Assembly (NCBI GenBank): GCA_963715755.1
Contig: OY970273.1
Span: 86,028-150,027, forward strand
Source: an uncultured Planctomycetaceae bacterium
GTDB taxonomy: Bacteria > Planctomycetota > Planctomycetia > Pirellulales > PALSA-1355
Reading direction: 5' to 3'
Length of the DNA: 64,000 nt
Shown: in pieces, positions 16,950 to 37,679 of the stretch
Position numbering within the stretch: the first letter of the stretch is position 1
Layout of the letters: each line of letters opens with the position of its first letter
Notes under the pieces: generated by a model
What the model saw: the letters and a program-made list of their open reading frames with translations, nothing else
What the model was told of the DNA's origin: nothing
Databases searched by the model: none
Translations under genes and position numbers: made by a program

Positions 16950-17723
<774 letters not shown>

Positions 17724-18200: not shown

Positions 18201-18267
18201 AGGCGAGCCGGGAAGTTCAAGTTCGCGGTGCCGAGCGCCGTGAGTGACCAATGAGCGGACACCGCCG

Positions 18268-20271
18268 CTACAACTCGAGTTGCTCGGCATCGAATTGATC
18301 TTCATCCGCCGATTCGGTCGAGAGCCGGCAGTCGGGCAGGCTTTCCAGGAATGAGCGGCCGTAGGGCTTGCTGCGCATCCGCGGATCGAGAATCACCACC
18401 AGGCCCCGGTCCCGGGCCGAGCGGATCAGCCGGCCGAAGCCCTGCTTGAGCTTCAGGATCGCCTCGGGCAATTGATAATCGGCAAACGGATTGCCCCCCG
18501 CGGCCCGGATCGCCTCGAGCCGGGCTTCGAGCAGCGGCCGGTCGGGCACGCTGAACGGCAGCTTCGTGATGATCACGTTCTGCAGGGCGTCGCCCGGCAC
18601 GTCCACGCCCTGCCAGAAACTGTCGGTGCCCATCAGCACGCCGCGCGGGTTGGCCTTGAAACGCTCGATCATCGTGCTGCGGGGCACGCCGTCGGCCTGG
18701 CAGTACAGCGCCAGATCGCGCTCGGCCAGCCAACCGGTCAGGCCCGCCGCCACGCGGCGCATCATCTCGTAACTGGTAAACAGCACGAACGCGTGCCCGT
18801 CGGTGCGGCCGGCAAATCGCTCGATCATGTCGATCGTGCGCCGCTGGTAGCGCTGGGTGTCCGAAGGGTCGGGCATGCCGTCGACCAGGATCAACTCGAC
18901 CTGCCGGGCGTAGTCGAAAGGGCTGCCCCAGCGGCGGGCCGTGGCCTGCGTCAGGCCGACCCGGCTCTTGAAGAAATCAAACGAGCCCTGGCGGCCGACG
19001 GTCAGTGTGGCGCTGGTCATAATCACGCTGGGCACCTTGCCGAACAGCTCCTTGCGGAGGGCCGGCCCCACGTCGAGCGGCGCCGCGGCCAGCGTCATGC
19101 GCAACCGGCCGCGCCGGCTGCGCGACGCATCGGCCCAGTAGACGGTGTCGGGCATCTGCTGCGTGCGCCAGGCTTCGAGCTCGGCGGCGAGCCCGGACAG
19201 CCGGTCGGCCGCCGAGATGAGATCCTGGCGCTCGATTTCGCCCAGCTTGCTGGCCGCCGAGCGCAGCAAGCCGGACAGATTCGCCAGGCCCGGGCTGAGC
19301 CGGTTCAGCCCGACGACCGTGCCCGGCGCCCGGGCGCTGGCCTTGCCCTGCCGGGCCAGCCAGGCGTGGGCGTCGGCGAAGAACTCTTCGGCCAGGTGCC
19401 GGCAATGATCGACGCTCCGCTGGGCATCGCCGAGGTGGTGATGGACCAGCAAGCCGCGATTGGTGCGGTCGTTGTAGAGCTTGGAGAGCAGGTAATCGAC
19501 CTGGCCGCTCGAGGCGCTGGCGCCCAGGTGATCGCTGGCCACGGCTTCGAGCGTATGGGCTTCGTCGAAGATCACGGCCCCGTAGTCGGGCAGAATGCTC
19601 ACGCCCTCGCGGCGCAGGGCCAGATCGCTGAAGAACAGGGCATGGTTGACGACCAGCAGCTGGGCGTGCTGCACGCGGCGCCGGGCCGAGTAGTAGAAGC
19701 ATTCCTTGTAGGTCGGACATTTGCGCCCCAGGCAGTTGCCGCTGTCGCTTTGCACTTCGTCCCAGACGGTCGAGAGCGGCTGATGCTCCAGGTCCGTCAG
19801 CGAGCCGTCCTGGGTGTTGCGCGACCAATCGATCACGTCGGCCAGATCGGCAAATTCTTCTTCGCGGTGGAACAGGCTGGCCGCCCGCTCGGCGGCGCCC
19901 TGCATGCGTCGCAAGCTGACATAGTTGTGCCGCCCCTTGACCAGCACGGCCGTGAACTCGCAAGGCATCACGCTGCGCAGCAAGGGTAAGTCCTTGTGGA
20001 TCAGCTGTTCCTGCAGGCTGATCGTATGCGTCGAGATGACGATCCGCTTGGGCAGGGCTTCGCTCGACTCGGCCACCGCCAGGATGGCAGGCACGAGGTA
20101 GGCAAAACTCTTGCCCACGCCGGTACCGGCCTCGGCGATCAGGTGCTGGTGTCCGTTGAGCGCGGCGGCGACCGCATCGGCCATTTCGAGCTGTTCGCGG
20201 CGCTGCTCGTAGTGGTCGAGCCGGGCGGCAATCCGGCCGGTGGGTCCCAGAATTTCGGCGGGCGTGAGCAT
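18268..20271 (-). CDS. DinG/Rad3-family ATP-dependent DNA helicase
   Basis: [16 protein letters not shown] Walker A, DEAHTLE box, Cys cluster region; ATG at 20271 ([10 protein letters not shown]). Confidence 0.8.
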
Positions 20272-20584
20272 GGGGCGGAAGTGTTGCGAAGAGTGAGCCG
20301 CTGGCGTCAAGGTAACATATGCAAGGCCAAAGGCAGACGGCAAAACGCGGAACGACCCGGGCAGAAGGCAGCAGGATGAGACCATCCGAATAACCGGCGG
20401 ACAACGTGCCGCCGGGCGGACGCCGCGCGACGTGGCGATTCGCGCCGCGCGGAAACGGCAAGCCCGCGGGCGTGTGTTTTGCCGTGGGGTCTGCTATTCT
20501 GCCTCGGGCAGCCGGGACACCGGACCGAGAGCCCGCTAAGAAAAACGCGCCGCCGCAGGCGCCCGCCGCACCGCGAGAGAATCT

Positions 20585-21625
20585 ATGCCGATTGAGTTCC
20601 GCTGTACCAAGTGCAGCAAGTTATTGCGCACACCCGACGAAACGGGGGGCAAACAAGCTCGCTGCCCCCAGTGCGGCACGATTCTGGCCATTCCGGTGCC
20701 CGCTGCGGCGCCGGCGACGCCGGCTCCGTCGCCCCCAACTCCCGCTCCCGCGGGTCTGTCCCGTGCTGCGCTGGCGCCGGCCAGTGCGAACCCGTATCAG
20801 TCGTCGACCGTCACGTCGCCGTCAGCCGGTGTGACGCCCGCCGCGGGGTACGGCAAGCTGGACGTCAGCGATGCATTTGCGCGGGCCTGGGCGATCTTCA
20901 AGCCGAACATCGGGCGTTGCATCGGCATCGTGCTGTTGTTTTACCTGTGCTACATGGGATTGTTTCTGCTATTTGGAGCCGCGATCGGCTTTGTCAGTTT
21001 CGCCGTGCGGCCCGGCGCCGGGGGCAATGCCGGCGGAGGCCTGCCGGCGATCTTTGCGGTGGCCGGAGCGTTGTACGTGGTGGCGCTATTGGCGAACATG
21101 TGGTTTTTGGCCGGGCAGACCAATTTCTTTTTGAAGGTGGCGCGGGGCGACAGGGATGCCTCGGTCTCGCTGCTGTTCGGCGGCAGTCGTTGGTTTCTGA
21201 CGGTCTGCGGGGCCGGAATCCTGGTGGCTCTGGCGATTTCCCTCGGTTGGATCCTCTGTATCGTGCCGGGCATCATCGTCGGGCTGATGTTTTCGCAATT
21301 CCTGTTTTCGATCGTCGACCGCGATCTGGGCGTGCTCGAATCGTTGAGCGAATCGCGCCGCATCACGTCGGGCAACAAAGGCATGCTGTTCGTCACATTT
21401 CTGATTCCATCGGTAATCATGATGGCCGCCAGCATCGCGCCCAATCTGGCCCTGCGGCCGCTGCTCGCAGACCACCCGTTTTTCATCATGGGCATTCAAT
21501 TCGGGATCCAGATGGTCGCCACCGTCACGGTATTGCCTTGGTTCTGGGTGTTACTGGCGACGTGCTACCTGATCATGTCGGGGCAGCCCACCGCGGACCG
21601 GAGCTCGAACCAAACATTCGGCTAG
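20585..21625 (+). CDS. membrane protein with N-terminal zinc ribbon and Pro/Ala-rich linker
   Basis: CTKCSKL...CPQCGT zinc ribbon, PAPSPPTPAP linker, 5-6 TM helices. Confidence 0.6.
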   Translation: MPIEFRCTKCSKLLRTPDETGGKQARCPQCGTILAIPVPAAAPATPAPSPPTPAPAGLSRAALAPASANPYQSSTVTSPSAGVTPAAGYGKLDVSDAFARAWAIFKPNIGRCIGIVLLFYLCYMGLFLLFGAAIGFVSFAVRPGAGGNAGGGLPAIFAVAGALYVVALLANMWFLAGQTNFFLKVARGDRDASVSLLFGGSRWFLTVCGAGILVALAISLGWILCIVPGIIVGLMFSQFLFSIVDRDLGVLESLSESRRITSGNKGMLFVTFLIPSVIMMAASIAPNLALRPLLADHPFFIMGIQFGIQMVATVTVLPWFWVLLATCYLIMSGQPTADRSSNQTFG

Positions 21626-21717
21626 TGAACCGGGTTGGCGTCCAGGCGATTGAACGCTGCCGGTGGGCCTGGGCGAGTGAATGACCGGCCCGTTTTCGCC
21701 CCTTCGGGGCGAAGCCG

Positions 21718-22560
21718 CTACCGCCCCTTCGGGGCGATCAGGTCCGTTTCCGGACTGCTGGCCGTGGCATAGAGCTTCTTGGGAATCCGGCCGGCCAGCC
21801 AGGCCAGGCGCCCGGCCGTGATCCCGGCTTTCATGGCCAGGGCCATGGACAGCGGATCGCCGGCGTGGGCAATGCCCGTGTTGAGCAGCACGCCGTCGAC
21901 CCCCAACTCCATGGCTGCGGTGACGTCGCTGGCCGTGCCCACCCCCGCATCGACGATGACCGGATAGTCCGGATCGCCGTCCTTGAGGTACTCGAGGCAG
22001 ATGCGGATGTTGTTGGGGTTGAGGATTCCCTGGCCCGAGCCGATCGGGCTGCCGGCCGGCATGACGCTGGCGGCGCCGGCTTGTTTGAGCCGCCGGGCGA
22101 CGATCGGATCGTCGCTCGTGTAGCACAGGACCTGGAAACCTTCGGCCACGAGTTTCTCGGTGGCGGCGATCGTGGCGACGGGGTCAGGCAGCAGAGTCTT
22201 GGTGTCGGCCAGCACCTCGAGCTTGACCCAGTCGGCGCCGGGATTTTCCAGGCCGAGCAGAATTTCGCGTCCCAGCCGGGCCACGCGAATTGCGTCGTCG
22301 GCCGAAAAGCAGCCGGCCGTGTTGGGCAGCAGCGTGTAACGGCTGGTGTCGAGGTAGTCCAGGATGTTCTGCCCCTGGGCGTTGACCAGGCGCTCGCGGC
22401 GGACGGCCACGGTGATGCAATCGGTGCCGCTCAGCGCAAGCGCCTCGGCCATCAGCTCGTAGCTGGCGTATTTGCCCGTGCCTACGATCAGCCGGCTGGC
22501 CAGCGTATGCGTGCCGATTTGCAGCTTGTCGCCCACTTGCACGTCCGTCGCCACGCTCAT
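21718..22560 (-). CDS. thiG: thiazole synthase ThiG
   Basis: ATG 22560 preceded by GGAGGAGG; [19 protein letters not shown]...[13 protein letters not shown]...[13 protein letters not shown] conserved ThiG core; overlaps thiS stop (ATGA). Confidence 0.9.
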
Positions 22561-22763
22561 CCTCCTCCGACCAGCGTCACCACTTCGACCTTGTCCCCTG
22601 GTGCGAGCTCGTGCTGGGCATGCCGGGCACGGGGCACCAATTCCAAATTCACTTCGACGGCCACTTGCCGCGCGTCGAGCTCGAGCTCGGCCAGCAGCGC
22701 GGCCACACTGGTGCCTGGGCACGCTTCACAGGGCTTGCCGTTGACCGAGATTTCCACGCCCAT
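22557..22763 (-). CDS. thiS: sulfur carrier protein ThiS
   Basis: 68 aa [13 protein letters not shown]... ending in GG; translationally coupled to thiG. Confidence 0.75.
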
Positions 22764-23087
22764 TCGCCAGCCGCAGGTTTGAAAACAGTTGCCGAGCCCC
22801 GGCATTGTAGAAGTGCCCTGCGCGGCCGGTCAAGGATCGACTAAATGTCGGCCGGGCCGGTGTGATCTAACGCGATCCTGGCAAAGTGTGCTCCCGGAGG
22901 CGTGATCCGCACATCGCCGGCACGACGAGAACGGCGGAGATCCTCGTGCCCGCCGCGTGCCGGATTCGATGCCGAGCCGGGAAAAGCTTACAATGGCTGG
23001 AGCGAATAGCTGCTGGGGACCGGCCGCTGTCGGATGCCGGCCGGTTACGCGACCCCCGCTGCCGGCTGCCTGAGCGTCAAGCGATCT

Positions 23088-24227
23088 ATGTCGACCAAAG
23101 CCAGCGTGGACAATCCGTTCTCCTGCCCGCATTGCGGCACGCTGGAGCCGCGATTTGCCAGCCGGGCCGGATTGCCGGTTTCCTGCCCGGGGTGCGGCCG
23201 GCAATTCGTGGCGGGGGTTCCCAGCCTGGCAACTCCCAACGTGCTGGCTGCCGGCTCCGAATCGGCCGACGAATCCGACACGTACGAGCTCGAGCCGCCG
23301 GTCGCCCGTCCGCCCGCGCCGGTGTTCACCGATGAAGAGTTGGCTCCGCCCGAACCGCGCAAGCCGGCGGCGACGCGCGAGGTGTCGCTGGAGCCGGTCG
23401 GCTACGATTCGCACGCGGCGCGCGAGCAGCGGCTGCATCGGTTTCATCACGAGCCCGACGAGCCGCCCAAGGTGGTCTTTCTGTCGGGGGTGTTCGATTT
23501 TCCGCTGCGCTCGGGAGTCTGGCAGCGCTGGCTGTCGATGTCGTTTTCGCTGCTGGTCCTGGGCCAGATCGGAATCCCCTGCCTGCGGCTGCTCGGCGTG
23601 CTCGACGATTCGGCGGCTTCCGGCGCCATGATCCTGGGCCTGGTAATGGGCTTGCCGACGCTGTTGATCACGTTGATCGGCGGCGGCTATGTTTCGGCCT
23701 GCCTGCTGGCCGTGGTCGAAGACACGGCCAACGGTTGCGATCAGGTGCAAGAGTGGCCCGAGTCCGACTGGCGCGATTGGGCCTTTACGCTGCGCCTGCC
23801 GCTGATGGCGGCCTTGGGCTCGTTTGCCGCCGGCAGCTTGTTTAGTTGGCTCGCCGGCCAGTGGAACCTGGCGGCCGACCTGGCCGCGCTCGTCGTCTTT
23901 CCGGTCCTGATCCTATCGATGCTGGAAAGCGGGGCGGCGCTCGCACCGATCAGCGCCGCAATCCTGAGCACCTGCCTCCGCTTCTGGTGGGTCTGGGCGA
24001 TCTTCTATGCCGAGACCGGTCTGGCGCTCATTGCCGTGGCCTGGCTGCTGCGCTGGATCGCAGGTCAATCCCTGAGCGTGGCGCTCCTTTGCGGCGCTCC
24101 GCCACTGGTGTATTTCATGCTGGTCTACGCGCGGCTGTTGGGCCGCCTGGCCTGGTACACCGGTTGGGACGAACAAGAGGAGTCCGACGATGACGAAGAG
24201 TTGTCCGCTGGCGACCTGCCGGCCTGA
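23088..24227 (+). CDS. membrane protein with N-terminal zinc ribbon (second such gene flanking thiSG)
   Basis: CPHCGT...CPGCGRQF zinc ribbon, acidic/Pro linker, multi-TM C-terminal half, acidic tail. Confidence 0.55.
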   Translation: MSTKASVDNPFSCPHCGTLEPRFASRAGLPVSCPGCGRQFVAGVPSLATPNVLAAGSESADESDTYELEPPVARPPAPVFTDEELAPPEPRKPAATREVSLEPVGYDSHAAREQRLHRFHHEPDEPPKVVFLSGVFDFPLRSGVWQRWLSMSFSLLVLGQIGIPCLRLLGVLDDSAASGAMILGLVMGLPTLLITLIGGGYVSACLLAVVEDTANGCDQVQEWPESDWRDWAFTLRLPLMAALGSFAAGSLFSWLAGQWNLAADLAALVVFPVLILSMLESGAALAPISAAILSTCLRFWWVWAIFYAETGLALIAVAWLLRWIAGQSLSVALLCGAPPLVYFMLVYARLLGRLAWYTGWDEQEESDDDEELSAGDLPA

Positions 24228-24272
24228 CCAATCGCCTGTTGCCACGTGCGACGCGAGCCACCCCGAGGGCCT

Positions 24273-25409
24273 ATGAGAACCGAGCGCACGCGTCGACTGC
24301 CACCGCTGTTTACGCAAGTGATCGGCTCGCTCCCCCGGCCGCAAGCGGTGCGCGATCTGGTGGCCGCCCGCGACCGGCGCACCGGCGACGGCGCAGGCGA
24401 TCAGGCCGGGCCAGCGGATGCTGAGGCCCTGGACAGCATGGTCGCGTTTGCCATTGGCGTGCAAGAACAGGCCGGTCTCGACGTGGTCAGCGACGGCGAA
24501 TGGCGCCGCGGCCATTACATCGGCGAATTTCTGAGCCGGGTCGGCGGCTTCGAAAAAGTCCGGCCCTACGAGCACCAGGGGGAACGGAAACTTACCGACG
24601 TGGTCGTTCGTCGGATGCAGGCCGGCGAGCCGGTGTTTGCCCGCGATGCGGCTTTCCTGGCCAGTCACACTCGGCGCGTGACCAAATTTGCCCTGCCCAG
24701 CCCGTTCCTGATTGCGGTGCGCTACTGGCACCAGGACTTCAGCCGCGAGGCCTATCCGACGCTGGAGCATTTCCTCGCGCATCTGGCTGAACTGCTGGCC
24801 CGCGAGGCTCAGGCCGTGGCCGCGGCGGGCATCGACATCGTGCAGCTCGACGATCCGGCCCTGGCTTATTTCTGCGACCGGCGTTTGACCGCCGGCGAGT
24901 CGATCCACGACGAGCGCTTGCGGCGCGAGTGGAACATCGACCGGCAATTCCCTCAGGCGCTGGCGGCGATCGGCCGGGTGGTCGACGGTTTGGCGGCCGA
25001 AGTTCACCTGCACTGCTGCCACAGTGTGTACAAACGGCAGAGCGACGTTCGCGGCGATTACCGGCCGATCCTGTCGCGGTTTGCCGGCGCGCCCATCGAC
25101 CGGCTAAATCTCGAGTTCGCCTACGAGGGCACAGGAGACGTGAGCGACTTGGACCTGCTGCCCGAGGGCATCGACCTGGGCATGGGCGTCGTCGACGTGC
25201 GGACCGAGCAGCCACAGTCGATCGAGGCGATCGAGCGGCTGGCCGCGGCGGGCATCGCGCGGATCGGGGCGGCGCGGATGGCGCTGAATCCCGACTGCGG
25301 CTTTGCGCCCGGGGCCGGCGAACCGCCGACGCTGGACGAAGCCTACGAAAAGCTCAAGCGGTTAGTGGCGGCGGCGAAGCGGCTGCGCGAGCGGTTTGCC
25401 GGCTATTGA
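24273..25409 (+). CDS. cobalamin-independent methionine synthase (MetE C-terminal domain)-like family protein
   Basis: IGSLPRP N-terminus, zinc-ligand-like HLHCCHS and LNPDCGF; last ~50 codons are repeated at 30181-30336. Confidence 0.7.
   Translation: MRTERTRRLPPLFTQVIGSLPRPQAVRDLVAARDRRTGDGAGDQAGPADAEALDSMVAFAIGVQEQAGLDVVSDGEWRRGHYIGEFLSRVGGFEKVRPYEHQGERKLTDVVVRRMQAGEPVFARDAAFLASHTRRVTKFALPSPFLIAVRYWHQDFSREAYPTLEHFLAHLAELLAREAQAVAAAGIDIVQLDDPALAYFCDRRLTAGESIHDERLRREWNIDRQFPQALAAIGRVVDGLAAEVHLHCCHSVYKRQSDVRGDYRPILSRFAGAPIDRLNLEFAYEGTGDVSDLDLLPEGIDLGMGVVDVRTEQPQSIEAIERLAAAGIARIGAARMALNPDCGFAPGAGEPPTLDEAYEKLKRLVAAAKRLRERFAGY
25251..25409. repeat. left copy of ~150-bp imperfect direct repeat (3' end of the MetE-like gene)
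   Basis: ggcatcgcgcggatcggggcggcgcggatggcgct... shares all but ~5 positions with 30181-30336 before the two copies diverge at the last few codons. Confidence 0.8.
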
Positions 25410-25711
25410 GGCCGTTGCAGCCAGTAGTTCGGCTCGCGGCTGCAGTGCGTCACGGCAACTACCAAGATTTCATTTTCCAGCACCTCAAAGACTACCGCGT
25501 AACGCAATTTGTCCAATAACGCGCGGCGGTAGGGCTGGTCGGCCGGGAGGGTCTCAAGTTTGGGAAAACTGAGCGGGCGGGAGACGATGGTGTCAAACGC
25601 CCGCTCAAGTTCGACGAGCAAGGCGGCACCGGCCGACGCGGATTGGTCGTTCAGGTACCGTCGCGCAGCTTCGACCTCAGCCTCGGCCTCGGGAAGGATA
25701 CGGAGGATCAC
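25403..25711 (-). CDS. type II toxin, ParE/RelE family
   Basis: 102 aa ...YRRALLDKLRYAVVFEVLENEILVVAVTHCSREPNYW; overlaps antitoxin stop by 4 nt. Confidence 0.8.
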   Translation of the reverse strand: MILRILPEAEAEVEAARRYLNDQSASAGAALLVELERAFDTIVSRPLSFPKLETLPADQPYRRALLDKLRYAVVFEVLENEILVVAVTHCSREPNYWLQRPQ

Positions 25712-25956
25712 CCTGCCGTCTCGCTCGCCTGACGACGTGATAAGTCGGCAAGCATCTCGGCAGCCGATCTGGTGTCCGTCGCGCCTGCTCGATATGCGGC
25801 CGACCGGCGCTGCAACTCGGTGAGCAGTTCGCTGCCGGCGAGCACTTCGCGGCGATCGCTGGCTTCAAGGCTTTGTCCGAGGGCCACGGCAACGTAGGCC
25901 CGATCTTCGGGTGTGAGGGCAAGCGCCTGTTGCAGAATTTGTTCGCGATCCGACAT
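25708..25956 (-). CDS. antitoxin, putative addiction-module component (TIGR02574-like)
   Basis: MSDREQILQQALALTPEDRAYVAVALGQSLE...; ATG 25956 preceded by GAGGAG; operon with the ParE-like toxin. Confidence 0.65.
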   Translation of the reverse strand: MSDREQILQQALALTPEDRAYVAVALGQSLEASDRREVLAGSELLTELQRRSAAYRAGATDTRSAAEMLADLSRRQASETAG

Positions 25957-26128
25957 GGTCGACTCCTCGCTGGCTGATAGTTCCAATTTTCGCATCGTGG
26001 GGTCCAAAAGTCGAGAGTATTGCCTGTCCGGGTGACGGCCGCACGATAATTGACACCCCACCGCGAACGGTGAGACAATACCGCGCCTGGATTTCATCTC
26101 TCCGCGGCGGCTTTGCCGGACGACGGCC

Positions 26129-29100
26129 ATGGCCCAAAGTTTTGACCCGTATCACATCTGGCTGGGAATCCCGCCCGAGGATCAGCCACCCGATCATTAC
26201 CGCTTGCTGGGGGTCAAGCAGTTCGAGTCGAACCCCGACGTGCTGGAAAGCGCCGCAGATCAGCGGATGACGCACATCCGCTCGTTTCAGACCGGCAAGC
26301 ACGCGGCCGAATCGCAAAAACTGCTCAATGAGTTGTCGGCGGCCCGGCATTGCCTGCTGAATCCGGAAAAGCGCCAGCCCTACGACCAGGCGCTGCGGGC
26401 CCAGCAACCGCAGGCAGCTCCGCCGGCTACGCTGCCCAAAGCGATGCCGACAAGCCCGGTCAGACCGCTGGCCGTGGCCACACCGCTGGCGGTGCAGAGC
26501 GTCGCACCGACGTCGCCCGACCTCGGCTTCGATCCGCTGGAGCAGGCCGGCGGACGGCGCACCGCCAAGAGACGCCGGACCACGGTGCCACCGGTGATGT
26601 TGGCCGCGGTCGGTGCGGGGCTCGTCGCCGTGATTGGAATTGCCTGGGTAATCCTGGGCGGCGGGACGGACGAAAGCACTCCACTCGCCGCACGTGTCCC
26701 GGGTGATTCGGCAACCCGCGAGCAGCGCGGCGCGGACGACACGCGTGAATCGATCCCCGCGCGACCCCTGCCCGCGGCTCCGCACCCATCGACCAGTCCG
26801 CTCGATCCCGACGGCGTTCCGGCGGACGACGGAACGCAGGACTCGATGACCTCAGCCGATGATCCGGCCGTCGAGCCCGCCGAGGACACCGCCGGCGACA
26901 TGCCCGCGGCCGTGTCGGCGGACGAAGACGAGACGCCCCAGACGGCGGTTGAGACCCGACCCGCTCCGCCCGACGCGGCCCAGCAGGCGGCCGCCCTGGC
27001 CGAAGTGCAGCGGGCGCTGAAGGCCGAATTCGCTGCGGCCAAGAAACCGGCCGACAAGGCGGCGCTAGCCGAAAAGTTGCTTGCGCTGGTGCCCGACAGC
27101 AGCGATCCGGGCGAGCAGTACGTCCTGCTCGGCGAGGCTCGGCGGCTGGCCATCGCGGCGGGCGCTCCGGCCCTGGCGCTGCAAGCGACGGAGGGATTGG
27201 CCGAGAGCTTTGCGGTCGATCGCTTCGAAGAGCTGGCCAAAACGGCTGAGGAACTGGGTGGAAAAGACCTTTCGTCGGCACTGAAGAAAGAACTGGCCGA
27301 GTCCCTTGAGCCCCTGACCGGCGCGGCTCTGTCGGCGGGCCAGTTTGCGGCCGGGAAGCGCCTGGCCAGGGTGGGGCTGGCGGCCGCCCGCAAGAGCAAC
27401 CAATCCGAGCTCGCCAAAACCTTTGTCGGGCGGGGCAAGGAATTGGCCGCCGGCGAAAAGGTCGTGACCAGCGCTGCCGAGGCGCGGGAAAACCTGGCAA
27501 AAAATGCGAACGACGCCGCGGCACACGAAACGCTGGGGAGATACTTGTGCCTGTACGTCGGCGACTGGCCGGCTGGCCTAGAGCATCTGGTGCGCTCGGA
27601 GAGCCCGGCCCTGCGGTCCGTTGCCCAATTGGAAACGTCGGCCGATCCGACTCCCGCCGCAATGACGAAACTGGGCGATGCCTGGTGGGACCTGGCCGAG
27701 CATGGCGTTGTGGATGCCAGCCGCATGCGCGGCCGTGCAGGCTACTGGTACGAGCAGGCGGTCGGCGGGCTGACGGGGTTGACACAGACCCGGGTCGAGA
27801 AGCGACTGGAAGAAACCGCTGCTACTCAGCCGAACGGGGCGGGTGGCGGAGTCATTGCCGACAAGCTGGTCCTCTGGAACTGCAATAGTAACCAGTGGAG
27901 GAACCGCGGGATGCTCAGCGCCAACATCGAGCTGCGAAGGGCAGACAAAGTCGTCTGGTCGAAGAAAGACATTCCGCTGGCGTGGAGCAGAGACGAAGAA
28001 CCAGCGACAACGATTCTGTTGCCGAAGATCCCCTTCGACGCATTGCGGGTAGTAACGGCCTCGTTTCAAGAGCTTGGATCGGCGCTCTGCGAGATCGAAG
28101 TTTTTCGCGGTCGCGACAACCTTGCTCGCGGAAAACCAGCGATAGCCAGCGCGACGTACGATTCGCATTCGCCGGCGGCGCTCGTCGATGGAATCACGAA
28201 TTCTTCGCGCGTCGGCGTCGGGTATTGGGTAGCGCCCGACCGTCAGCCCTCTTGGGTCGAAGTGCAACTGACCCCGCCCGTGCGTCCGAACATGGCCGAG
28301 GCAGGTGGCGGCGTCATTGCCGACAAGCTGGTTCTATGGAACTGCAACAGCAACCATTGGAAGGATCGCGGCGTCCTGATCGCCAACGTGGAGTTGATGA
28401 GGGCCGGGAAGGTCGCCTGGTCAAAGAAGGCGATCAGAGTGGCTTGGAGCAAAGACGCGGAACCCGCGACGACGATTCGGTTGCCGAATATCCGGTTCGA
28501 CGTGCTACGCATCGAAGCGGCCTCCCATCAGGGGGCGGGCTCGGCACTGTGCGAGATAGAAGTATTCCGTGGCGGCATGAACCTTGCACGCGGAATGGCG
28601 GTCGTGGCGAGCGGTTCCCACCATTCGGGCCATCATCCGGCCAGCGCCTTGGTTGACGGCGTCACGGATTCATCGCAGGACGGTGTCGGTTACTGGGTCG
28701 CGCCAGACCATCAACAGGCATGGGTCGAAGTGCAGGTCGCTCCGCCATCAACCCCGAGCGGCAAGACCGTCTACTTGTCCGACCTACCGGCCACCGAGAC
28801 TCGAATTCACATCGCGTCACTGTACGACCGGCATCCGGTTGGCGGCGTAGAATGCACCCACGGCCTGTTCATGCCTCCGAACCACAGTAGTTCATCCCAC
28901 GTGGCTTTCGTTCTCGATCAGGAGTACCGGACGGTTTCCGGCGCGGCGGCGATTGCCGACTCGGCTGGAGTGCGAAGCGCCTCGCCGCTGACGTTCCGAA
29001 TCGTAGGCGACGGAACGGAATTATGGCGCACGACAATACAAAGCGTTCGTGAAATTCGGCCTATACGCGTACCTGTCGGCAATGTCAGCAAGCTCGAATT

Positions 29101-30154
29101 GTTCGTCGACTGCCCCGGCAACGCTGACGCGGGACACGCGCTCTGGGTCGATTTGGTTCTAACACGTTCCGGCGCGACACCAACGGTATCCACGAAATCG
29201 CGGCCGGGAAAAACCCCTGATGAACCTGCCGTCAACAAGCAAGGGCACGCCGCCGGTGTCGTCGCGGACAAGCTGGTGTTATGGAACTGCAACAACCACA
29301 CCCGGAATGATCGCGGAATGCAAAGCGTCGACGTTGAATTGCGCGCGGCAGGCAGAGTCGTTTGGTCGAAGAAAAGCATCCCAACGGCTTGGAGCAAGGA
29401 CGACGAACCGGCGACGACGGTCCCACTTCCAAAGGTCGCGTTCGAAGCGGTTCGCGTCGCAACGGCCTCCTTTCAGGGGATCGGGTCCGCGCTTTGCGAG
29501 GTCGAGGTCTTCCAGGGGAACGCCAACATCGCGAGCGGAAAACCGGTGAAGGGCAGCGGATCGTACGCTGGAGAATACTCGCCCGCAGCGGTCGTCGACG
29601 GCATTACCGACTCCTCGCGCTTCCACGTCGGGTATTGGGTCGGGCCCGATCAGCAACTTGCCTGGGTCGAGGTGCAGGTTGCTCCGCCAACGGCGCCGAC
29701 CGGCAAGACCGTCTACTTGTCCGACCTGCCGGTCCTGGAGTCCCAGGTACACACCGGGACGACCCTGACCGACTCGATTCCAGTCGGCGGCGCGACGCCC
29801 GCTCACGGTCTTTTCATGCACCCTGCAGACGGTGGTACGTCGCATGCCGTTTATGCTCTGGACAAGAGATATCAGATGCTCTCGGGCGCGGCGGCGGTCG
29901 GCGACACGGCGGGTGAACGGAGCGCGACGCCGCTCACATTCCGCATTGTCGGGGACGGAAAAGAATTGTGGCGTGCGACGACGCAAGAGGTTGGGGTGAC
30001 ACGCCCCGTGAACGCGCTCGTCAGCGGCGTTACCAAGCTTGAGCTGTTTGTCGACTGCCCCGGCAGTGTGGTGGCTGCGCACGCAGTTTGGCTGGATTTG
30101 GCGCTCACGCGAGCCGGACCGGGCACCGGGCCGAAGGCAAAAAAATCGCCTTGA
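26129..30154 (+). CDS. 1341-aa membrane-anchored multi-CBM protein: J-domain-like N-terminus (no HPD), one TM, helical stalk, 3 discoidin (F5/8 type C)-like and 2 NPCBM-like modules
   Basis: N-terminus DPYHIWLGIPPEDQPPDHYRLLGV...FQTGKHAAESQKLLNEL (J-like, HPD absent); TM VMLAAVGAGLVAVIGIAWVILGG; repeats GGVIADKLVLWNCNSN...ALVDGITxSS...YWVAPD..WVEVQ x3 (27841, 28303, 29249); TVYLSDLP...GHALWVDLVLT and ...AHAVWLDLALT (NPCBM-like, DHADWAD-type ending) x2; repeat region has visibly lower G+C. Confidence 0.85.
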   Translation: MAQSFDPYHIWLGIPPEDQPPDHYRLLGVKQFESNPDVLESAADQRMTHIRSFQTGKHAAESQKLLNELSAARHCLLNPEKRQPYDQALRAQQPQAAPPATLPKAMPTSPVRPLAVATPLAVQSVAPTSPDLGFDPLEQAGGRRTAKRRRTTVPPVMLAAVGAGLVAVIGIAWVILGGGTDESTPLAARVPGDSATREQRGADDTRESIPARPLPAAPHPSTSPLDPDGVPADDGTQDSMTSADDPAVEPAEDTAGDMPAAVSADEDETPQTAVETRPAPPDAAQQAAALAEVQRALKAEFAAAKKPADKAALAEKLLALVPDSSDPGEQYVLLGEARRLAIAAGAPALALQATEGLAESFAVDRFEELAKTAEELGGKDLSSALKKELAESLEPLTGAALSAGQFAAGKRLARVGLAAARKSNQSELAKTFVGRGKELAAGEKVVTSAAEARENLAKNANDAAAHETLGRYLCLYVGDWPAGLEHLVRSESPALRSVAQLETSADPTPAAMTKLGDAWWDLAEHGVVDASRMRGRAGYWYEQAVGGLTGLTQTRVEKRLEETAATQPNGAGGGVIADKLVLWNCNSNQWRNRGMLSANIELRRADKVVWSKKDIPLAWSRDEEPATTILLPKIPFDALRVVTASFQELGSALCEIEVFRGRDNLARGKPAIASATYDSHSPAALVDGITNSSRVGVGYWVAPDRQPSWVEVQLTPPVRPNMAEAGGGVIADKLVLWNCNSNHWKDRGVLIANVELMRAGKVAWSKKAIRVAWSKDAEPATTIRLPNIRFDVLRIEAASHQGAGSALCEIEVFRGGMNLARGMAVVASGSHHSGHHPASALVDGVTDSSQDGVGYWVAPDHQQAWVEVQVAPPSTPSGKTVYLSDLPATETRIHIASLYDRHPVGGVECTHGLFMPPNHSSSSHVAFVLDQEYRTVSGAAAIADSAGVRSASPLTFRIVGDGTELWRTTIQSVREIRPIRVPVGNVSKLELFVDCPGNADAGHALWVDLVLTRSGATPTVSTKSRPGKTPDEPAVNKQGHAAGVVADKLVLWNCNNHTRNDRGMQSVDVELRAAGRVVWSKKSIPTAWSKDDEPATTVPLPKVAFEAVRVATASFQGIGSALCEVEVFQGNANIASGKPVKGSGSYAGEYSPAAVVDGITDSSRFHVGYWVGPDQQLAWVEVQVAPPTAPTGKTVYLSDLPVLESQVHTGTTLTDSIPVGGATPAHGLFMHPADGGTSHAVYALDKRYQMLSGAAAVGDTAGERSATPLTFRIVGDGKELWRATTQEVGVTRPVNALVSGVTKLELFVDCPGSVVAAHAVWLDLALTRAGPGTGPKAKKSP

Positions 30155-30180
30155 GCCGCCGCCGGACTTGCCGTTGCCAG

Positions 30181-30336
30181 GGCATCGCGCGGATCGGGGC
30201 GGCGCGGATGGCGCTAAATCCCGACTGCGGCTTTGCCCCCGGGGCCGGCGAACCGCCGACGCTGGACGAAGCCTACGAGAAGCTCAAGCGGCTAGTAGTG
30301 GCGGCGAAGCGGCTGCGCGAGCGGCTGGCGAAGTAA
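30181..30336. repeat. right copy of the MetE-like 3'-end direct repeat (diverged, encodes ...LKRLVVAAKRLRERLAK*)
   Basis: aligns base-for-base with 25251-25406 with ~5 substitutions, then diverges. Confidence 0.8.
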
Positions 30337-30376
30337 TCAAGTGGGCCCTATGGGACCGACCCATTGGCCGCCGGCG

Positions 30377-30684
30377 TTAATGCGGGCGGCCGAGCCAATA
30401 ATTCGGCTCGCGAATGGCGTGCGCCAGCGCGACGATGACGACCTGGTCCGTCAGCACTTCGAACACCACGGCGTAGTGGAATCGCGCCAGCAGCGCCCGT
30501 CGATAAGGCGCACGCTTGGGTAGCGTTTCCAGTTTAGCGAAGCTCAAGGGACGTTCGGCGATCGCATCGAGCGATTGACACAGATCATTCAGGAATGGTC
30601 GCCCGCGGAGATCGGTCGGCCGTTCAAGAACTGCCGAGCAGCCTCGATCGCCGCTTCGGCCTCGGCGAGGATCCGTGGAGTCAC
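30377..30684 (-). pseudogene. decayed second copy of the ParE/RelE toxin gene
   Basis: GTG 30684 reads VTPRILAEAEAAIEAARQFLN...SAGDHS* then the other frame continues ...SLDAIAERPLSFAKLETLPKRAPYRRALLARFHYAVVFEVLTDQVVIVALAHAIREPNYW; about 10 codons missing relative to copy A and frame broken. Confidence 0.6.
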
Positions 30685-30777
30685 AAGGTGGGCTCGCCGG
30701 CCTGTCGGCACTGCGCGTCGGCAAGCACATCCGCGTCGGCACGCGCGGTCGTTTCGCCGGCCCGGCAGCGACCGATG
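30681..30777 (-). pseudogene. 3' fragment of a second antitoxin copy
   Basis: encodes ...GRCRAGETTARADADVLADAQCRQAGEPTL*, homologous to the C-terminus AAYRAGATDTRSAAEMLADLSRRQASETAG* of the intact antitoxin; N-terminal part absent. Confidence 0.45.
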
Positions 30778-31188
30778 CTAAGGGCTCCCCCAGAACCACG
30801 CGAAAATTCCGAAACCAAGAAGCAGCCCGATCCCGGTTAGGGTCGGCCCCCAAACGGCATTGAAACACACCGGTTCACACCAACGCGGCTGGCTGGGGTT
30901 GTAACGGATGAAGATCGAGTCGCCGCGCCGCCACGGCCTGCGCCACCCGCTCCACGTGGAAACGGTCACGACCTTGTTTCCGTCTACAGTCTCAAATTGA
31001 ACAACGGGAGCATAATAACGCCCCTCGGATCCATGCGTAATTTGATAGCGCAGGACAATCGCCGACACCTTGGGCCAGCGCCGCCACTTCCAGGTTTCGT
31101 AACCGACAAAAAAAATCAGCAGACCTGCGATAAACGTGAACGCGACAACGAAAAAAATGATTTCGATCATACCTGGCTGATCACGCAT
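30778..31188 (-). CDS. DUF3592-family membrane protein
   Basis: MIEIIFFVVAFTFIAGLLIFFVGYETWKW...PVVQFETVDGNKVV...; start could be 31188 (MRDQPGM) or 31170 (MIEII). Confidence 0.6.
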   Translation of the reverse strand: MRDQPGMIEIIFFVVAFTFIAGLLIFFVGYETWKWRRWPKVSAIVLRYQITHGSEGRYYAPVVQFETVDGNKVVTVSTWSGWRRPWRRGDSIFIRYNPSQPRWCEPVCFNAVWGPTLTGIGLLLGFGIFAWFWGSP

Positions 31189-32821
31189 CTCCCTTGCGAG
31201 CAGTCTCCGGCGCCCCGTTGCCGGCGGCAACGTTGCCGCTGGGCGCATTGCGGGCCGGCTCGTGCGCTTCGCCGCCCAGCTTGATTAGTGCCTCGGGCAG
31301 CTCCACCCCGCCGATGTCGCGGAGCACCTGCATCATCGGCGGCATCGTGCTGGCCATGTTGTGCAGGAAGCTGGCCGTGTTGCTCTTGCCGCCCGAGCCG
31401 CCGTTTTCCCAAACGATGACCTTGTCGAACTTGATATTCGAGATCGCCTGGGCCGAGGTCTCGGCCAGCTTGTCGAGGTGTTCGAGCATGAGCAGCTGAA
31501 AGGCCTCTTTGGCGCCGCCGCAGGCCGCGATGATCTGCTTGAGGCCTTCGCCCTTTTTGGCCAGGATTTCGTACTGCCCGCGGGCTTCGGCCTCGAGCTT
31601 GGCGAAAATGGCCTGGGCCTGGCCCTCGGCTTCGATCCGCCGCTTTTGCGCTTCGGCTTCTGCCTCGACGATGGTTTTGGCCTTCTGGGCTTTGGCTGGG
31701 GCTTCGAGCTCGGCCCGGCGCTCGGCCTCGACACGTTCGGCGTCGGCCAGGGCGGCCTTGGCCATGGCCCGGTTCTGGGCCTCGAGCACGGCGGCTTCGG
31801 CCTCGCGCTTGCGGCGCTCGCCCAGCTCGTAGGCCTCGGCCTTTTTGACCAGCAGCTGGGCCTGCGAGTTGGCGATCAGCGCCTGGGCCGAGTTTTCGCC
31901 TTCGATCGCCTTGGCCTCGGCGCCGGCCAGCGACACCCGCATGGCCTGCTGGGCGTTCTTGACCTGGGCGTCGCGATCGAAGGCGGACGACTGCTCGCCC
32001 ACTTTCTGATCGCGGTCCAGCTCGGCCAGCCGCACCGCCTGCTCGCGCTGGGCCTCGCGGGTGCCGATGTCGCGGAACTTATTGGCATTGGCCACCTGAA
32101 TGACGCGGTCGCGCTCGGCCTCGGCGACGCGCGTCTCGCCGATCCGCTCCTGCTCGGCCACGTCGCCCCGGGCTTGCTGGATGGCCTGGCTGGCGGCCTT
32201 CTGGCCGATGGCGTCGATGTAGCCCGACTCGTCCTGGATGTCGGTCACGTTGACGTTGATCAGCACCAGGCCGATCTTTTTCAGCTCCGGTTCGAGCGAA
32301 CTTTGGATGTGATGGAGAAAGGTTTCGCGGTCGCGATTGATGTCCTCGATCCGCATCGAGGCGATCACCTGTCGCAGCTGGCCGAAGATGATTTCCTCGG
32401 CCTGCTTGCGCACCTGGGCCGCGTTTTGCCCCAACAGGCGGATGGCGGCGTTCTGCATCACGTCGGGCGCGGTGCCGATGGCCACCGTGAACACGCTCGG
32501 GACGTTGACGCGGATGTTTTCCATCGACAGCGCCCCGCGGAGCGGAATCTCGATCTGGATCGGCTCCAGGCTCAGGTAACTGTAGTCCTGGATCAGCGGC
32601 CAGACGAACGATGCCCCGCCGTGGATGCAGCGGGCGCTGTCGCCGTGCCCCACCTTGCCGTAGATCACCAGCACCCGGTTGCTCGGGCAGCGCTTGAACC
32701 GCTTGGCAACGAAGATCAGCGTGCTTAGCAGCAGCAGCGCCAGGGCCACGCACATCGCCACCACGTAGGCGTACGGTCCGGACGCGCGACCGGCTTGAGC
32801 GAGCAGGAGGTAGCAGTTCAT
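31181..32821 (-). CDS. flotillin-family SPFH/Band-7 protein (YqiK-like)
   Basis: N-terminal TM, SPFH domain, long Ala/Glu/Arg/Lys coiled-coil (EAERRAELEAPAKAQKA...). Confidence 0.85.
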   Translation of the reverse strand: MNCYLLLAQAGRASGPYAYVVAMCVALALLLLSTLIFVAKRFKRCPSNRVLVIYGKVGHGDSARCIHGGASFVWPLIQDYSYLSLEPIQIEIPLRGALSMENIRVNVPSVFTVAIGTAPDVMQNAAIRLLGQNAAQVRKQAEEIIFGQLRQVIASMRIEDINRDRETFLHHIQSSLEPELKKIGLVLINVNVTDIQDESGYIDAIGQKAASQAIQQARGDVAEQERIGETRVAEAERDRVIQVANANKFRDIGTREAQREQAVRLAELDRDQKVGEQSSAFDRDAQVKNAQQAMRVSLAGAEAKAIEGENSAQALIANSQAQLLVKKAEAYELGERRKREAEAAVLEAQNRAMAKAALADAERVEAERRAELEAPAKAQKAKTIVEAEAEAQKRRIEAEGQAQAIFAKLEAEARGQYEILAKKGEGLKQIIAACGGAKEAFQLLMLEHLDKLAETSAQAISNIKFDKVIVWENGGSGGKSNTASFLHNMASTMPPMMQVLRDIGGVELPEALIKLGGEAHEPARNAPSGNVAAGNGAPETARKGDA

Positions 32822-32871
32822 GGATCGTCTTTCAGTGAGGAAGCGGGGGCGCAGCGCGCCGGAGCCAAAAC

Positions 32872-33630
32872 TCAGACATGAGCCCGCGTCGGCTGCGAAT
32901 CGGTGGCGCTCGCAGTCTCGGCCGCAACCACCTCGACCGCGCTGGGCCCGACGACCTCGACGACGATGACCCGCGTTCCGGTCGGCAGCGCCGCCCCGGC
33001 GGTGGTGGCCTGGTATTCGAGCGTGCGGTTTTGCATGGTGAGGTGAATTTTTCCGGCCCCGGCCCGGGCCGCGGGAATGCTCAGGTAAACGAGCGCCTCG
33101 CGGCCTACCGCGGCGCCGATCCGTTCGGTGCCGTCGGCCCGCAGCCGGCCCAGCGATTGCATCAGGTAGAACACGCTGTACATCGCCGCAGCGCCGCTGG
33201 CCAGGGCCAGCATCAACGGCCGCGGCGAGGCCAACTCGGCGCTCTCGGCCGCCAGGCCCGCCAGGCCGAAAAACACCAGCGCCGCAACCACCGTACGAAA
33301 CGTCAGCACGCGAAACAGCGTCGTCGAGTCGTGCTTGGAATGCGCCTGCGAATGGGCCTGGCTATGCGCGGTGCCGCCATGCGCGGCGCCGGCATGCCCG
33401 GGGCTATGGCCGTCGTGCGAGTCGCTCAGGTGACCGCCGGCCGACGAAGTGAACGTGTCGTGTCCAGCGTAATCGTGGCTGGCGAAATCATGCCCGGCCA
33501 GATCGCCGCCGCCGTCGCTGCCCAGGTCGTGATCGAGCCCCTCGTGGCCGAAGCCGACGAGCGAGAGGAGGAACTGACCAATCATCAGCGTTCCGCCGAG
33601 AATCGCGGCCGAGAGGAACAGCATTTCCAT
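32872..33630 (-). CDS. NfeD-like membrane protein (YqiJ-type flotillin partner) with His/Asp-rich insert
   Basis: N-terminal TM, HEGLDHDLGSDGGGDLAGHDFASHDYAGHD... His-rich segment, two TMs, C-terminal OB-fold-like GTRVIVVEVVGPSAVEV. Confidence 0.7.
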   Translation of the reverse strand: MEMLFLSAAILGGTLMIGQFLLSLVGFGHEGLDHDLGSDGGGDLAGHDFASHDYAGHDTFTSSAGGHLSDSHDGHSPGHAGAAHGGTAHSQAHSQAHSKHDSTTLFRVLTFRTVVAALVFFGLAGLAAESAELASPRPLMLALASGAAAMYSVFYLMQSLGRLRADGTERIGAAVGREALVYLSIPAARAGAGKIHLTMQNRTLEYQATTAGAALPTGTRVIVVEVVGPSAVEVVAAETASATDSQPTRAHV

Positions 33631-33977
33631 GGGAGCGAACCTCGCCGTACGAGCCTGGGTCCTGCTATCCGAAGGTATTTCGCCCGAACGGGCCGAAGAT
33701 TGGGCACCCGCCCGCGGCTACTGGCCTCAATCATCAAGGTGCGCCGACGGCGTGTCAAACTTGCGGGCTGGCGGTTGCGCGGCGGCGGCCTGCGGCATCC
33801 GGGCGCGGCCATTGGACTTAGCCGCGCGCAGGGTGCGCAAGTCGCGTAATTCCGAGCCATGCCGACCCATCGCCAAGGCCGCCCCAGACGACTACAATGC
33901 GTGGTTTTCACTGCCGGATTGTTTTGTTAGCCCACTAGCGGATCGAGGGCCGATCCATCCTCTCGACTGCCCAGGCC

Positions 33978-35165
33978 ATGCCCAAGCCTCGCTTGATGAC
34001 GCCCGGACCGACGCAAGTGCCGGAGCTTGCGCGCTTGGCCATGGCCCGGCAGGTGCTGCACCATCGCACGCCCGAGTTCAAAGCCCTGTTTGCCGAAGTG
34101 TTGGCAGGCCTGAAGTACGTCTTTGCCACCCAGAATGACGTGGTGGTCCTCTCGGCCTCGGGCACGGGGGCGATGGAGGCGGCGGTGGTCAACCTGGTGC
34201 CGCGCGGCGGCAAGGCCATCGTGCTCGACGCGGGGGTGTTTGCCCGCCGCTGGGCCCAGATCGCCCGGGCTTTCGGCATCGAAGTGGTCCGGCACGAAGT
34301 GCCCTGGGGCCAGGCGGTCGAAGCGGCCGACGTGGCCCGGCTGCTGGCCGAGCATTCCGACGCGGTGGCCGTGTTCGGCACGCTGATGGAGAGCAGCACG
34401 GGCGTGGGGCACGACGTGCAAGCGATCGGTCGCGTGGTCCGCGAAAGCCAGGCGGTATTCGTCGTCGACGGGATCAGCGGCGTGGGCGCCATGGAATGCC
34501 GCACGGATGACTGGGGCATCGACGTGCTGGTCGTCGGTTCGCAGAAGGCGCTGATGTTGCCGCCGGGATTGAGCTTTTTGTCGATCGGCGAGCGGGCCTG
34601 GCGGCAAATCGAAAAGACCCAGCCGCAAGCGTTTTATTTCAACCTCGGCCTGCATCGCGAAAAACTCAAGAGCGGACCCGAGACGCCCTGGACTCCCGCG
34701 GTCACGCTGGTCGTCGGCCTGGCCGAAAGCCTGCGGCAGATTCGCATGTCGGGCATCGAAGCGGTTTGGGCCCGGTGCGACGAACTGGCCCGGGCCACGC
34801 GAGCCGGCGTCCAGGCCATCGGCCTCGAGCTGTTTGCCCAGCGCCCCGCGGCGGGGCTGACTGCCGTCAAGGTGCCGGCCGGCGTAGAAGGGGGCGCGCT
34901 GCTCGCCCGGCTCGAGAGCCGTTTCGGCGTCAAGCTCGCCGGCGGGCAGGACAAGCTGCGGGGCAAGATTTTTCGCATCGGCCATTTCGGCGCGCTCGAC
35001 GAGCTGGACGTGCTTGGCACACTGGCCGCGCTCGAGTTGACGCTGGCCGAGCTGGGCCAGCCGATACGTCTGGGTGCCGCGGTGGCCGCCGCCGGCAGCC
35101 AATTGATCCGGCCGGCCGACAAACCGAACGCCGATAACAAGAACGTGGCACTGACTGGGTCTTAG
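33978..35165 (+). CDS. class V aminotransferase, alanine--glyoxylate/serine--pyruvate (AGXT) family; likely phosphoserine aminotransferase role next to serA
   Basis: MTPGPTQVPELARLAMARQVLHHRTPEF, PLP-fold; adjacent 3-PGDH gene. Confidence 0.8.
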   Translation: MPKPRLMTPGPTQVPELARLAMARQVLHHRTPEFKALFAEVLAGLKYVFATQNDVVVLSASGTGAMEAAVVNLVPRGGKAIVLDAGVFARRWAQIARAFGIEVVRHEVPWGQAVEAADVARLLAEHSDAVAVFGTLMESSTGVGHDVQAIGRVVRESQAVFVVDGISGVGAMECRTDDWGIDVLVVGSQKALMLPPGLSFLSIGERAWRQIEKTQPQAFYFNLGLHREKLKSGPETPWTPAVTLVVGLAESLRQIRMSGIEAVWARCDELARATRAGVQAIGLELFAQRPAAGLTAVKVPAGVEGGALLARLESRFGVKLAGGQDKLRGKIFRIGHFGALDELDVLGTLAALELTLAELGQPIRLGAAVAAAGSQLIRPADKPNADNKNVALTGS

Positions 35166-35272
35166 CTGACAAGTGGGTGCGGGGCGACCACCAGGAAGCC
35201 CGCGGCGCACCGCCTGGCCGCTGTCGACGCCCAACGATCTCGATCTCGACATCAATAACCTTGAGTTGAACC

Positions 35273-36895: not shown

Positions 36896-37078
36896 GCGAC
36901 CGCAGGCTATCATTCGCAGTGCGGGTTTGCGTCCCGCGCACCGCTCGACGTGCGATGCTGCCCCGGCGGACTGCAAAATAGTGGTCGGGGAGCGGCACGG
37001 CATGGTTCCCGATCGGTCGCCCCCCGGGCAGGCGCGGAAGTTTCCGGCAGACTTGCAACTCACCCTCGTCAGTCCAAA

Positions 37079-37678: not shown

Positions 37679-37679
37679 C

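Follow-up and report, generated by a model that had tools for sequence, protein, structure and literature searches.

Within a 64,000-nt stretch of DNA from an uncultured Planctomycetaceae bacterium (contig OY970273.1; this whole stretch is referred to as the window), a metE-like gene is followed by an intact ParE-type toxin-antitoxin (TA) pair and a giant gene, and then by a second copy of the metE 3' end attached to a broken copy of the TA genes. Comparison with related genomes revealed two haplotypes of this locus, with and without the giant gene, together with the joints and the relationships between the TA alleles. Our preferred explanation, which is put forward tentatively, is that the window chromosome is a recombinant of the two haplotypes, a fragment of haplotype 2 (giant-less) having been imported into a haplotype 1 chromosome. 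The locus is an ordinary, though neatly documented, scar of a known kind and not a new mobile element or molecular system. The features concerned are as follows (window positions).

24246..25409, plus strand: metE-like gene, with the PF01717 catalytic domain of cobalamin-independent methionine synthase (Pfam E 4e-26).
25250..25399, plus strand: left repeat copy (H_L), the 3' end of the working metE-like gene, with the tail VAAAKRLRERFAGY followed by the stop.
25403..25711, minus strand: parE_A, intact ParE/RelE toxin gene of allele A, 102 aa (PF05016, 31.4 bits; cut-off 23).
25708..25956, minus strand: antitoxin_A, 82 aa, PF09720/TIGR02574-type (PF09720 23.5 bits; cut-off 23.3).
25957..26128: divergent intergenic region between the antitoxin and the giant gene, 45-60% nt identity to the relative L012.
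26129..30154, plus strand: giant gene, 1341 aa, with two NPCBM domains and three repeats of ~155 aa.
30155..30179: spacer of ~25 nt, 3' of the giant gene and ending at the joint J1.
30180..30336, plus strand: H_R, orphan metE 3' end (last 52 codons plus stop), with the tail VVAAKRLRERLAK followed by the stop.
30337..30376: B-type spacer of ~40 nt, from the metE stop to the parE_B stop, not present in the left copy.
30377..30684, minus strand: parE_B', pseudogene of allele B, with a 1-nt deletion near 30593/30594.
30681..30779, minus strand: 3' stump of antitoxin_B, with ~27-28 codons clearly alignable and nt homology traceable to ~30779.
30778..31170, minus strand: DUF3592 membrane protein gene, 130 aa (PF12158), the right neighbour of the scar.
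31181..32821, minus strand: flotillin (SPFH/Band 7) gene, identified with Pfam, the conserved flank used for synteny.

The direct repeat is 150 nt in length, with copies at 25250-25399 and 30180-30329 (95% identity; repeat search and BLAST within the window, E 1e-63) and a sharp left edge at 25250/30180. An initial annotation of this DNA had noticed the recurrence of the metE end, which is real, and had put the difference between the copies at ~5 substitutions; 8 were counted, and the last 3-4 codons are also unlike. Past the metE stop the two copies continue to align at ~62% nt identity, through parE and then the 3' part of the antitoxin. The same annotation had placed an intact ParE-antitoxin pair and a giant carbohydrate-binding module (CBM) gene between the copies, and the Pfam domains found there confirm this. 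The orphan sequence is bounded by two joints. At J1 (30179/30180) the metE homology starts abruptly, with identity passing from 95-99% to none across the joint, and at J2 (30779/30780) the antitoxin_B stump meets DUF3592 inside the DUF3592 stop codon.

The right-hand TA copy does not retain intact frames, as parE_B' is split and the antitoxin is without its first two-thirds. The initial annotation had rightly called the second ParE gene frame-broken, but the ~10 missing codons that it reported were not found, the frame being broken by one 1-nt deletion with no codons missing; its figure of ~65% aa identity to the intact copy was likewise replaced by a measured 59%. The 3' fragment of a second antitoxin which it had seen beside this gene was recovered as the last ~28 codons. 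Frame-repaired ParE_B scored 20.1 bits against the PF05016 cut-off of 23, and a scan of JGI metagenomes with the repaired protein gave no match. The fragment 30180-30779 is predicted to be a non-functional scar because its toxin is frameshifted and its antitoxin lacks the first two-thirds; the operon promoter of allele B was presumably lost together with the antitoxin 5' part.

Four informative loci of relatives (L012, L032, L035 and L036) were obtained. In a GTDB scan with metE, one of 30 loci was syntenic (L012), while in a flotillin scan of JGI metagenomes none of 80 loci was syntenic beyond flotillin/nfeD/aminotransferase. The sequences used for comparison were:

L012 (GTDB metagenome-assembled genome): thiG, up397, metE, parE, antitoxin, giant gene, flotillin; thiG 89% aa and flotillin 94% aa identity to the window.
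L032 (ENA): metE, ~420 nt without a toxin, antitoxin, giant gene, flotillin; metE 87% aa.
L035 (ENA, 672-kb contig, conspecific-level, ~96% identical): metE, parE_B', antitoxin stump, DUF3592, flotillin.
L036 (JGI, 3.5 kb): giant protein C-terminus (AHAVW.DL.LTRA...K.P, then stop), 103-nt spacer, DUF3592-flotillin; 86% nt in DUF3592-flotillin.
L031 (2.15-kb Logan contig): matches window 25319-27472 with one mismatch and ends inside the repeat.

The closest relative, L035, supplied the empty site that the initial annotation had proposed to look for: parE_B', the stump, DUF3592 and flotillin come immediately after its metE. Its alignment to the window covered 15795-25394 (95.6%), resumed directly at 30180-30704 (98.9%) and went on over 30754-41155 (96.7%). 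The 4.93 kb separating the two repeat copies, with the giant gene and the allele A pair, are exactly what L035 is missing, so that 25251-30180 amounts to a presence/absence polymorphism with the repeat at its ends. The working metE end of L035 is H_R-type sequence, which differs from H_R of the window at 2 sites and runs directly into parE_B, with an identical B-type spacer between the two genes. J2 is the same in L035 and the window, and was thus inherited and not made twice. On the other side of the polymorphism, L036 has no metE/TA fragment between the giant gene and DUF3592, and represents the right side of haplotype 1.

Some further differences were seen in L035. Its antitoxin stump is shorter by 60 nt (window 30705-30764), a loss which is flanked by two short GCCGGCC repeats and could be explained by slippage, or by a microhomology-mediated deletion, subsequent to the main one. 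Single-base indels were found in its conserved genes (window-equivalent 23419, 24085 and ~30510) and its up397 is split, and it is probably an error-prone long-read assembly. The extra G in its parE_B may be a sequencing error, in which case the L035 toxin gene would be intact, an orphan without an antitoxin. A reading of the frameshifts in the window and in L035 as independent, parallel decay was discarded for this reason.

Which of the two TA alleles is resident was assessed from their relationships to the other genomes. The parE_B' sequence was 81% nt (74% aa) identical to parE of L012, which has an intact B-type TA pair, no second metE end and no DUF3592. The identity of parE_A to parE_B' was 62% nt (59% aa), and that to L012 parE was 64% nt. 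The antitoxin stump was identical to that of L012 at 17/21 residues vs 13/24 for antitoxin_A, and the right fragment as a whole was 98.9% identical to L035. As parE_B' is 81% nt identical to L012, while parE_A reaches only 62-64%, the right copy, with its broken frame, is the allele passed down vertically, and the left pair, which is intact, is a divergent allele of the same slot; the distribution of the B-type spacer, which is ~31 nt in L012 and absent from the left copy, agrees with this. In a sliding comparison with L012, a hypervariable slot extends from the last metE codons to the start of the giant gene (45-67% identity), with flanks at 83-93%. The initial annotation had offered a segmental duplication followed by insertion and decay. 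Divergence along the two copies is uneven (95% identity in the metE end vs 62% in parE), the TA copies are different alleles, and the right one is nearer to other genomes than to the left one, so that this proposal was not sustained. The TA slot and the giant gene are judged to be ancestral at this locus and not foreign cargo, because L012 and L032 have the order metE-TA-giant-flotillin; L036 supports the right side of this arrangement.

From these observations we infer the direction and the mechanism of joining as follows. Haplotype 1 consists of metE, a ParE/antitoxin pair with both genes intact, the giant gene and a short spacer, then DUF3592 and flotillin. Haplotype 2 is a derivative which lost the 5' two-thirds of the resident allele-B antitoxin, the entire giant gene and the spacer through a deletion, leaving the order metE, orphan parE_B, antitoxin stump, DUF3592, a form which L035 retains. 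The window would then be haplotype 1 to ~25 nt beyond the giant gene stop and haplotype 2 from 156 nt before the metE end, with the switch made through J1 as a single illegitimate joint. Because metE adjoins parE_B' in the giant-less haplotype, such a switch accounts for both the doubled metE 3' end and the second, broken TA copy. A haplotype-1 chromosome would in this process have taken up ~0.6-0.7 kb of haplotype-2 DNA through a rare, one-sided homologous recombination. The homologous anchor of the incoming DNA would have been in DUF3592/flotillin and its other end would have joined illegitimately in the spacer, the mechanism being homology-facilitated illegitimate recombination (HFIR). The homology-free joint in HFIR typically has 3-10 bp of microhomology.

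The direction of import was addressed through divergence from L035. The fragment carried 4 substitutions in 525 nt (0.76%), compared to 16 in 636 nt in the adjacent DUF3592/flotillin stretch (P = 0.024 for the comparison with the fragment), 12 differences over the 450 nt of metE that precede the repeat, and, when the four-fold sites of seven flanking genes were pooled, 6.75% differing sites (P about 4e-8). The tract of low divergence coincides with the fragment, and this fits the fragment as the imported piece, although as an argument for direction it is suggestive only.

Several observations weigh against this reconstruction. Divergence between the window and L035 is a mosaic, with 300-nt windows ranging from 85% to 99.7% identity, and tracts as similar as the fragment exist elsewhere (nfeD, with 1.9% differing four-fold sites, and the nfeD/aminotransferase intergenic region, at ~99%). 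Differences resume at 30776 and 30789, so that an imported fragment would need its right crossover within ~10-70 nt of J2. The donor's 150-nt metE homology could have recombined homologously with H_L instead. At position 25287, H_L and L035 have G and H_R has A, a pattern which fits cassette displacement or a secondary deletion in L035 (both described below). L035 is the single conspecific relative available for comparison. Finally, no independent read or contig was found across J1: L031 covers the left copy only, and exact-protein look-ups with metE (two starts), DUF3592 (156- and 130-aa forms), the 163-aa open reading frame over parE_B' and flotillin had no contig on record, which leaves J1 without independent confirmation.

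The closest rival, which comes near to the insertion proposed in the initial annotation, is that a cassette displaced the resident sequence; we regard it as possible but less probable. According to this explanation, DNA carrying a metE 3' end, the allele A pair, the giant gene and ~25 nt, in linear or circularised form, entered a giant-less, L035-like chromosome by crossing over within the metE 3' end. The metE end already there was pushed downstream together with parE_B' and the stump, and the cassette would come out again if H_L and H_R underwent the reverse exchange. L035 is then the exact empty site, the allele A pair and the giant gene are brought in by one event, and the pattern at 25287 fits a crossover between 25287 and 25309, although one mutation explains that pattern equally. 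Precedents exist: single crossovers of a circle duplicate 109-950 bp in E. coli (PMC3240628), Rhs 'C-terminal displacement' uses a circle and leaves dissociated core-bearing fragments (PMC2935791), and arrays of type VI secretion system (T6SS) effector-immunity genes have been explained likewise (PMC5361080). Sequence outside such a cassette should, however, be evenly close to L035, whereas the fragment is ~3x closer than its immediate flanks and ~9x closer than the four-fold sites. In addition, no circle or cassette was seen elsewhere, the nearest relatives of ParE_A being <=70% identical (aa) and the best of them lying in another context. A history entirely in situ is unlikely. It would begin with a tandem duplication of the metE end, TA pair and giant gene, followed by deletion of the second giant gene and replacement of the left TA pair by allele A, with L035 arising secondarily through recombination between H_L and H_R. 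The flanking of the segment by direct repeats suits this history, as does the L035 repeat, which is H_L-like at 25287 and H_R-like from 25309 on, as a deletion crossover would give. Four events are needed, though; an allele replacement is still demanded by a repeat at 95% beside a TA pair at 62%; an intermediate with two 4-kb copies of the giant gene would tend to delete the surviving fragment; and the low divergence of the fragment from L035 is left unexplained.

An assembly artefact, in which two co-occurring strain haplotypes were concatenated and J1 exists in no cell, is very improbable. Both component haplotypes do exist (L035 and L036), J1 stands unconfirmed as noted above, and L031 breaks inside the repeat, roughly where 31-mers become common to both repeat copies, and both repeat types were probably present in that sample. 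Against this, J1 joins non-homologous sequence, which is unusual for overlap or graph assemblers, the repeat copies differ by 5% and have unique flanks, and the source is a single 7.08-Mb contig with long open reading frames intact throughout the region. An integrase-mediated island using the metE 3' end as its attachment site, an option close to one raised in the initial annotation, is essentially excluded. Two hallmarks of such islands were present, in that a direct repeat of a gene 3' end brackets a segment which is absent from a close relative; a recombinase and foreign or non-syntenic cargo were not. No recombinase is encoded in the segment or within ~9-10 kb either side (Pfam scan and L035 collinearity), in agreement with the absence of an integrase remarked on initially. 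Nothing apart from ParE, the antitoxin and the giant protein is encoded in the segment, the flanks hold housekeeping genes and are collinear with L035 over >9 kb on each side, and no tRNA was found in the window. The TA slot and giant gene are syntenic in the distant relatives L012 and L032, with giant-DUF3592-flotillin also in L036, and the repeats are 150 nt long and 5% diverged with no identical core standing out. Searches of plasmids gave no match to the 4.93-kb segment and one match only (29%) to ParE_A, hence no plasmid link.

Composition was also examined. The GC content of 25251-30180 was 0.643 vs 0.657 in the flanks, and the dip was confined to the allele A pair (0.62) and the repeat half of the giant gene (0.617), where GC at third codon positions (GC3) was 0.71 vs 0.81-0.88 in core genes. 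As giant gene orthologues in L012, L032 and L036 have a matching internal dip, it is a property of the gene and not a sign of recent import. The lower-GC insertion described initially is therefore present as a slight dip, but foreign origin does not follow from it. The lowest GC nearby (0.556, GC3 0.66) was that of DUF3592, outside the proposed insertion. At E <= 1e-5, the only homologues of the DUF3592 protein were three members of its own 90%-identity cluster (P0121-P0123), and L035 and L036 have the gene whereas L012 and L032 do not, a distribution suggestive of a lineage-restricted gain at a site downstream of nfeD-flotillin. Flotillin itself showed 92-97% aa identity in L012, L032, L035 and L036.

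Patches of only 85-92% identity to L035, amid sequence at 96-99%, were found at 20950-21700, 24250-24700, 31530-32130 and 33180-33630, one of them in the N-terminal part of metE with an 18-nt indel and another in mid-flotillin. These suggest a recombination mosaic between conspecific lineages. The metE-like gene also conflicts with its neighbours in its relationships: L012 is nearer to the window than L032 for thiG (89% vs 84% aa), up397 and flotillin (94% vs 92%), though its metE is 71% identical vs 87% for L032. A metE at 85% identity occurs in L033 and L034 in another context, with a zinc alcohol dehydrogenase gene downstream. The gene may have been exchanged between lineages. In addition to PF01717, it matched NCBIfam methionine synthase models, all of them under their cut-offs, and the database gene call begins at 24273 (378 aa; P0001, a 100% match). 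The H_L tail is nearer than the H_R tail to the outgroups L032 (RFAG before the stop) and L033 (RFAP before the stop). A synonymous excess between H_L and H_R was considered as a sign of two working gene ends, but the outgroup-polarised counts were too small.

The working TA pair is, on present evidence, the left one, the divergent allele A, located in the hypervariable slot between metE and the giant gene. Its toxin gene, the stop codon of which overlaps the metE stop, is identical on the independent contig L031. The nearest database homologues of ParE_A have <=70% aa identity, the best of them being encoded at an unrelated locus of a 7.8-Mb genome. The antitoxin gene is upstream of parE_A on the same strand with a 4-nt overlap; its PF09720 score is barely over the threshold, and its TIGR02574 match (E 1.5e-4) is under the cut-off of that model. 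A promoter and terminator scan gave nothing exceeding shuffled expectation, and a promoter-like site for the giant gene at 26050-26079 (plus strand) was a single consensus match and not significant.

The giant protein has a conserved N-terminal region of ~90 aa with weak DnaJ-like similarity, followed by a hydrophobic stretch which, read by eye, is a probable membrane helix. Within its gene, 27835-29756 holds three units of ~300 nt (69-74% nt identity) as well as an internal duplication, 942 nt long, with an NPCBM domain in it. Module number and order vary in L012, L032 and L036, and the C-terminal domain of L012 differs. The working parts of the locus are ordinary, namely a large protein of surface type and a type II ParE/PF09720 pair.

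In L032, the toxin position (L032:11207-11529) is occupied by a ~320-nt non-coding element with 39-nt terminal inverted repeats (87% complementary), which looks like a miniature inverted-repeat transposable element, and the L032 antitoxin (PF09720, 30.5 bits) is an orphan. The first ~25 antitoxin residues (MSDREQ[IV]LQQAL.L.PEDRAYV) are conserved in three alleles (25708-25956, L012:11524-11706 and L032:11543-11791), while the C-terminal half and the toxin differ among them; in all three the antitoxin is divergently transcribed from the giant gene. A weaker idea, based on this conserved N-terminus, on the retention of the antitoxin alone in L032 and on the constant divergent arrangement, is that the antitoxin may help to regulate the giant gene.

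The locus is a compact natural record of a chromosomal TA slot turning over in place. Four related genomes display, between the same two genes, four states of the slot (intact A, intact B, orphan antitoxin with an inverted-repeat element, and orphan toxin with a stump), and the window preserves the physical joint between two haplotypes. A duplicated gene end around a segment which relatives lack can arise without a mobile element, and this calls for caution in island-calling; the value of the locus is as an example for Planctomycetes population genomics and for TA locus evolution. A further suggestion, which is improbable, is that the segment with the allele A pair and the giant gene is a reversible cassette that moves without an integrase, through recombination between H_L and H_R. 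If so, excision would give an L035-type chromosome with a working metE and a 4.9-kb circle, and one crossover within the metE 3' end could put the circle back into strains that have no giant gene. Such a process would amount to displacement of a housekeeping gene end in the style of Rhs tips, with the ParE/antitoxin pair penalising cells that lose the cassette. A separate point on function is that the allele A pair lies inside 150-nt direct repeats, recombination between which would leave a viable, L035-like metE, and an active ParE/antitoxin pair would be expected to counter-select such deletions. This expectation draws on the role in genome stabilisation that has been proposed for chromosomal TA loci.

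Among known systems, the TA pair conforms to the type II ParE/PF09720 family: the 102-aa toxin is over the Pfam threshold, the 82-aa partner lies upstream with a 4-nt overlap, and the same pairing is seen in L012 and L032, with nothing that appears unusual in the window pair. The locus resembles integrative islands with attL/attR sites in the gene-3'-end repeat around a segment missing from L035, and differs from them in having no integrase, ancestral cargo and a long, 5% diverged repeat. A further parallel is HFIR. According to PMC3240628, a one-sided homology anchor, an illegitimate far joint and the loss of some recipient DNA are the canonical outcome (on HFIR, PMC5361080 cites Prudhomme et al. 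2002 and de Vries & Wackernagel 2002). The window likewise has one homology-free joint (J1) and a 150-nt duplicated segment, but its event is reconstructed from comparative data and not directly observed. Duplications of homologous segments of 109-950 bp also follow single-crossover integration of circles in E. coli (Amarir-Bouhram et al. 2011, PMC3240628).

The remaining parallels are Rhs 'C-terminal displacement', which has a circular intermediate and leaves dissociated fragments still bearing part of the conserved core (Jackson et al. 2009, PMC2935791), and the 'sequential displacement' of T6SS effector-immunity genes (Kirchberger et al. 2017, PMC5361080). In these systems, as in the window, downstream of an intact gene there is a dissociated fragment, made up of part of that gene's conserved 3' region and an alternative toxin-type module; here it is the orphan downstream of metE, the allele A pair and the giant gene. 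The alternative carried by the orphan is found elsewhere in an attached, working version, in the window's case as the L035 metE end with parE_B and as the intact pair of L012. The window differs in having one orphan and not an array, and this orphan, a broken toxin and a stump, offers no evident benefit like that of a kept immunity gene. The conserved gene of the locus encodes a metE-like housekeeping enzyme instead of a toxin, and what varies is a type II ParE/antitoxin pair encoded on the other strand. The scar is slightly unusual for its kind in this housekeeping-gene anchor and opposite-strand type II TA module, and in the recovery of both parental haplotypes from public data.

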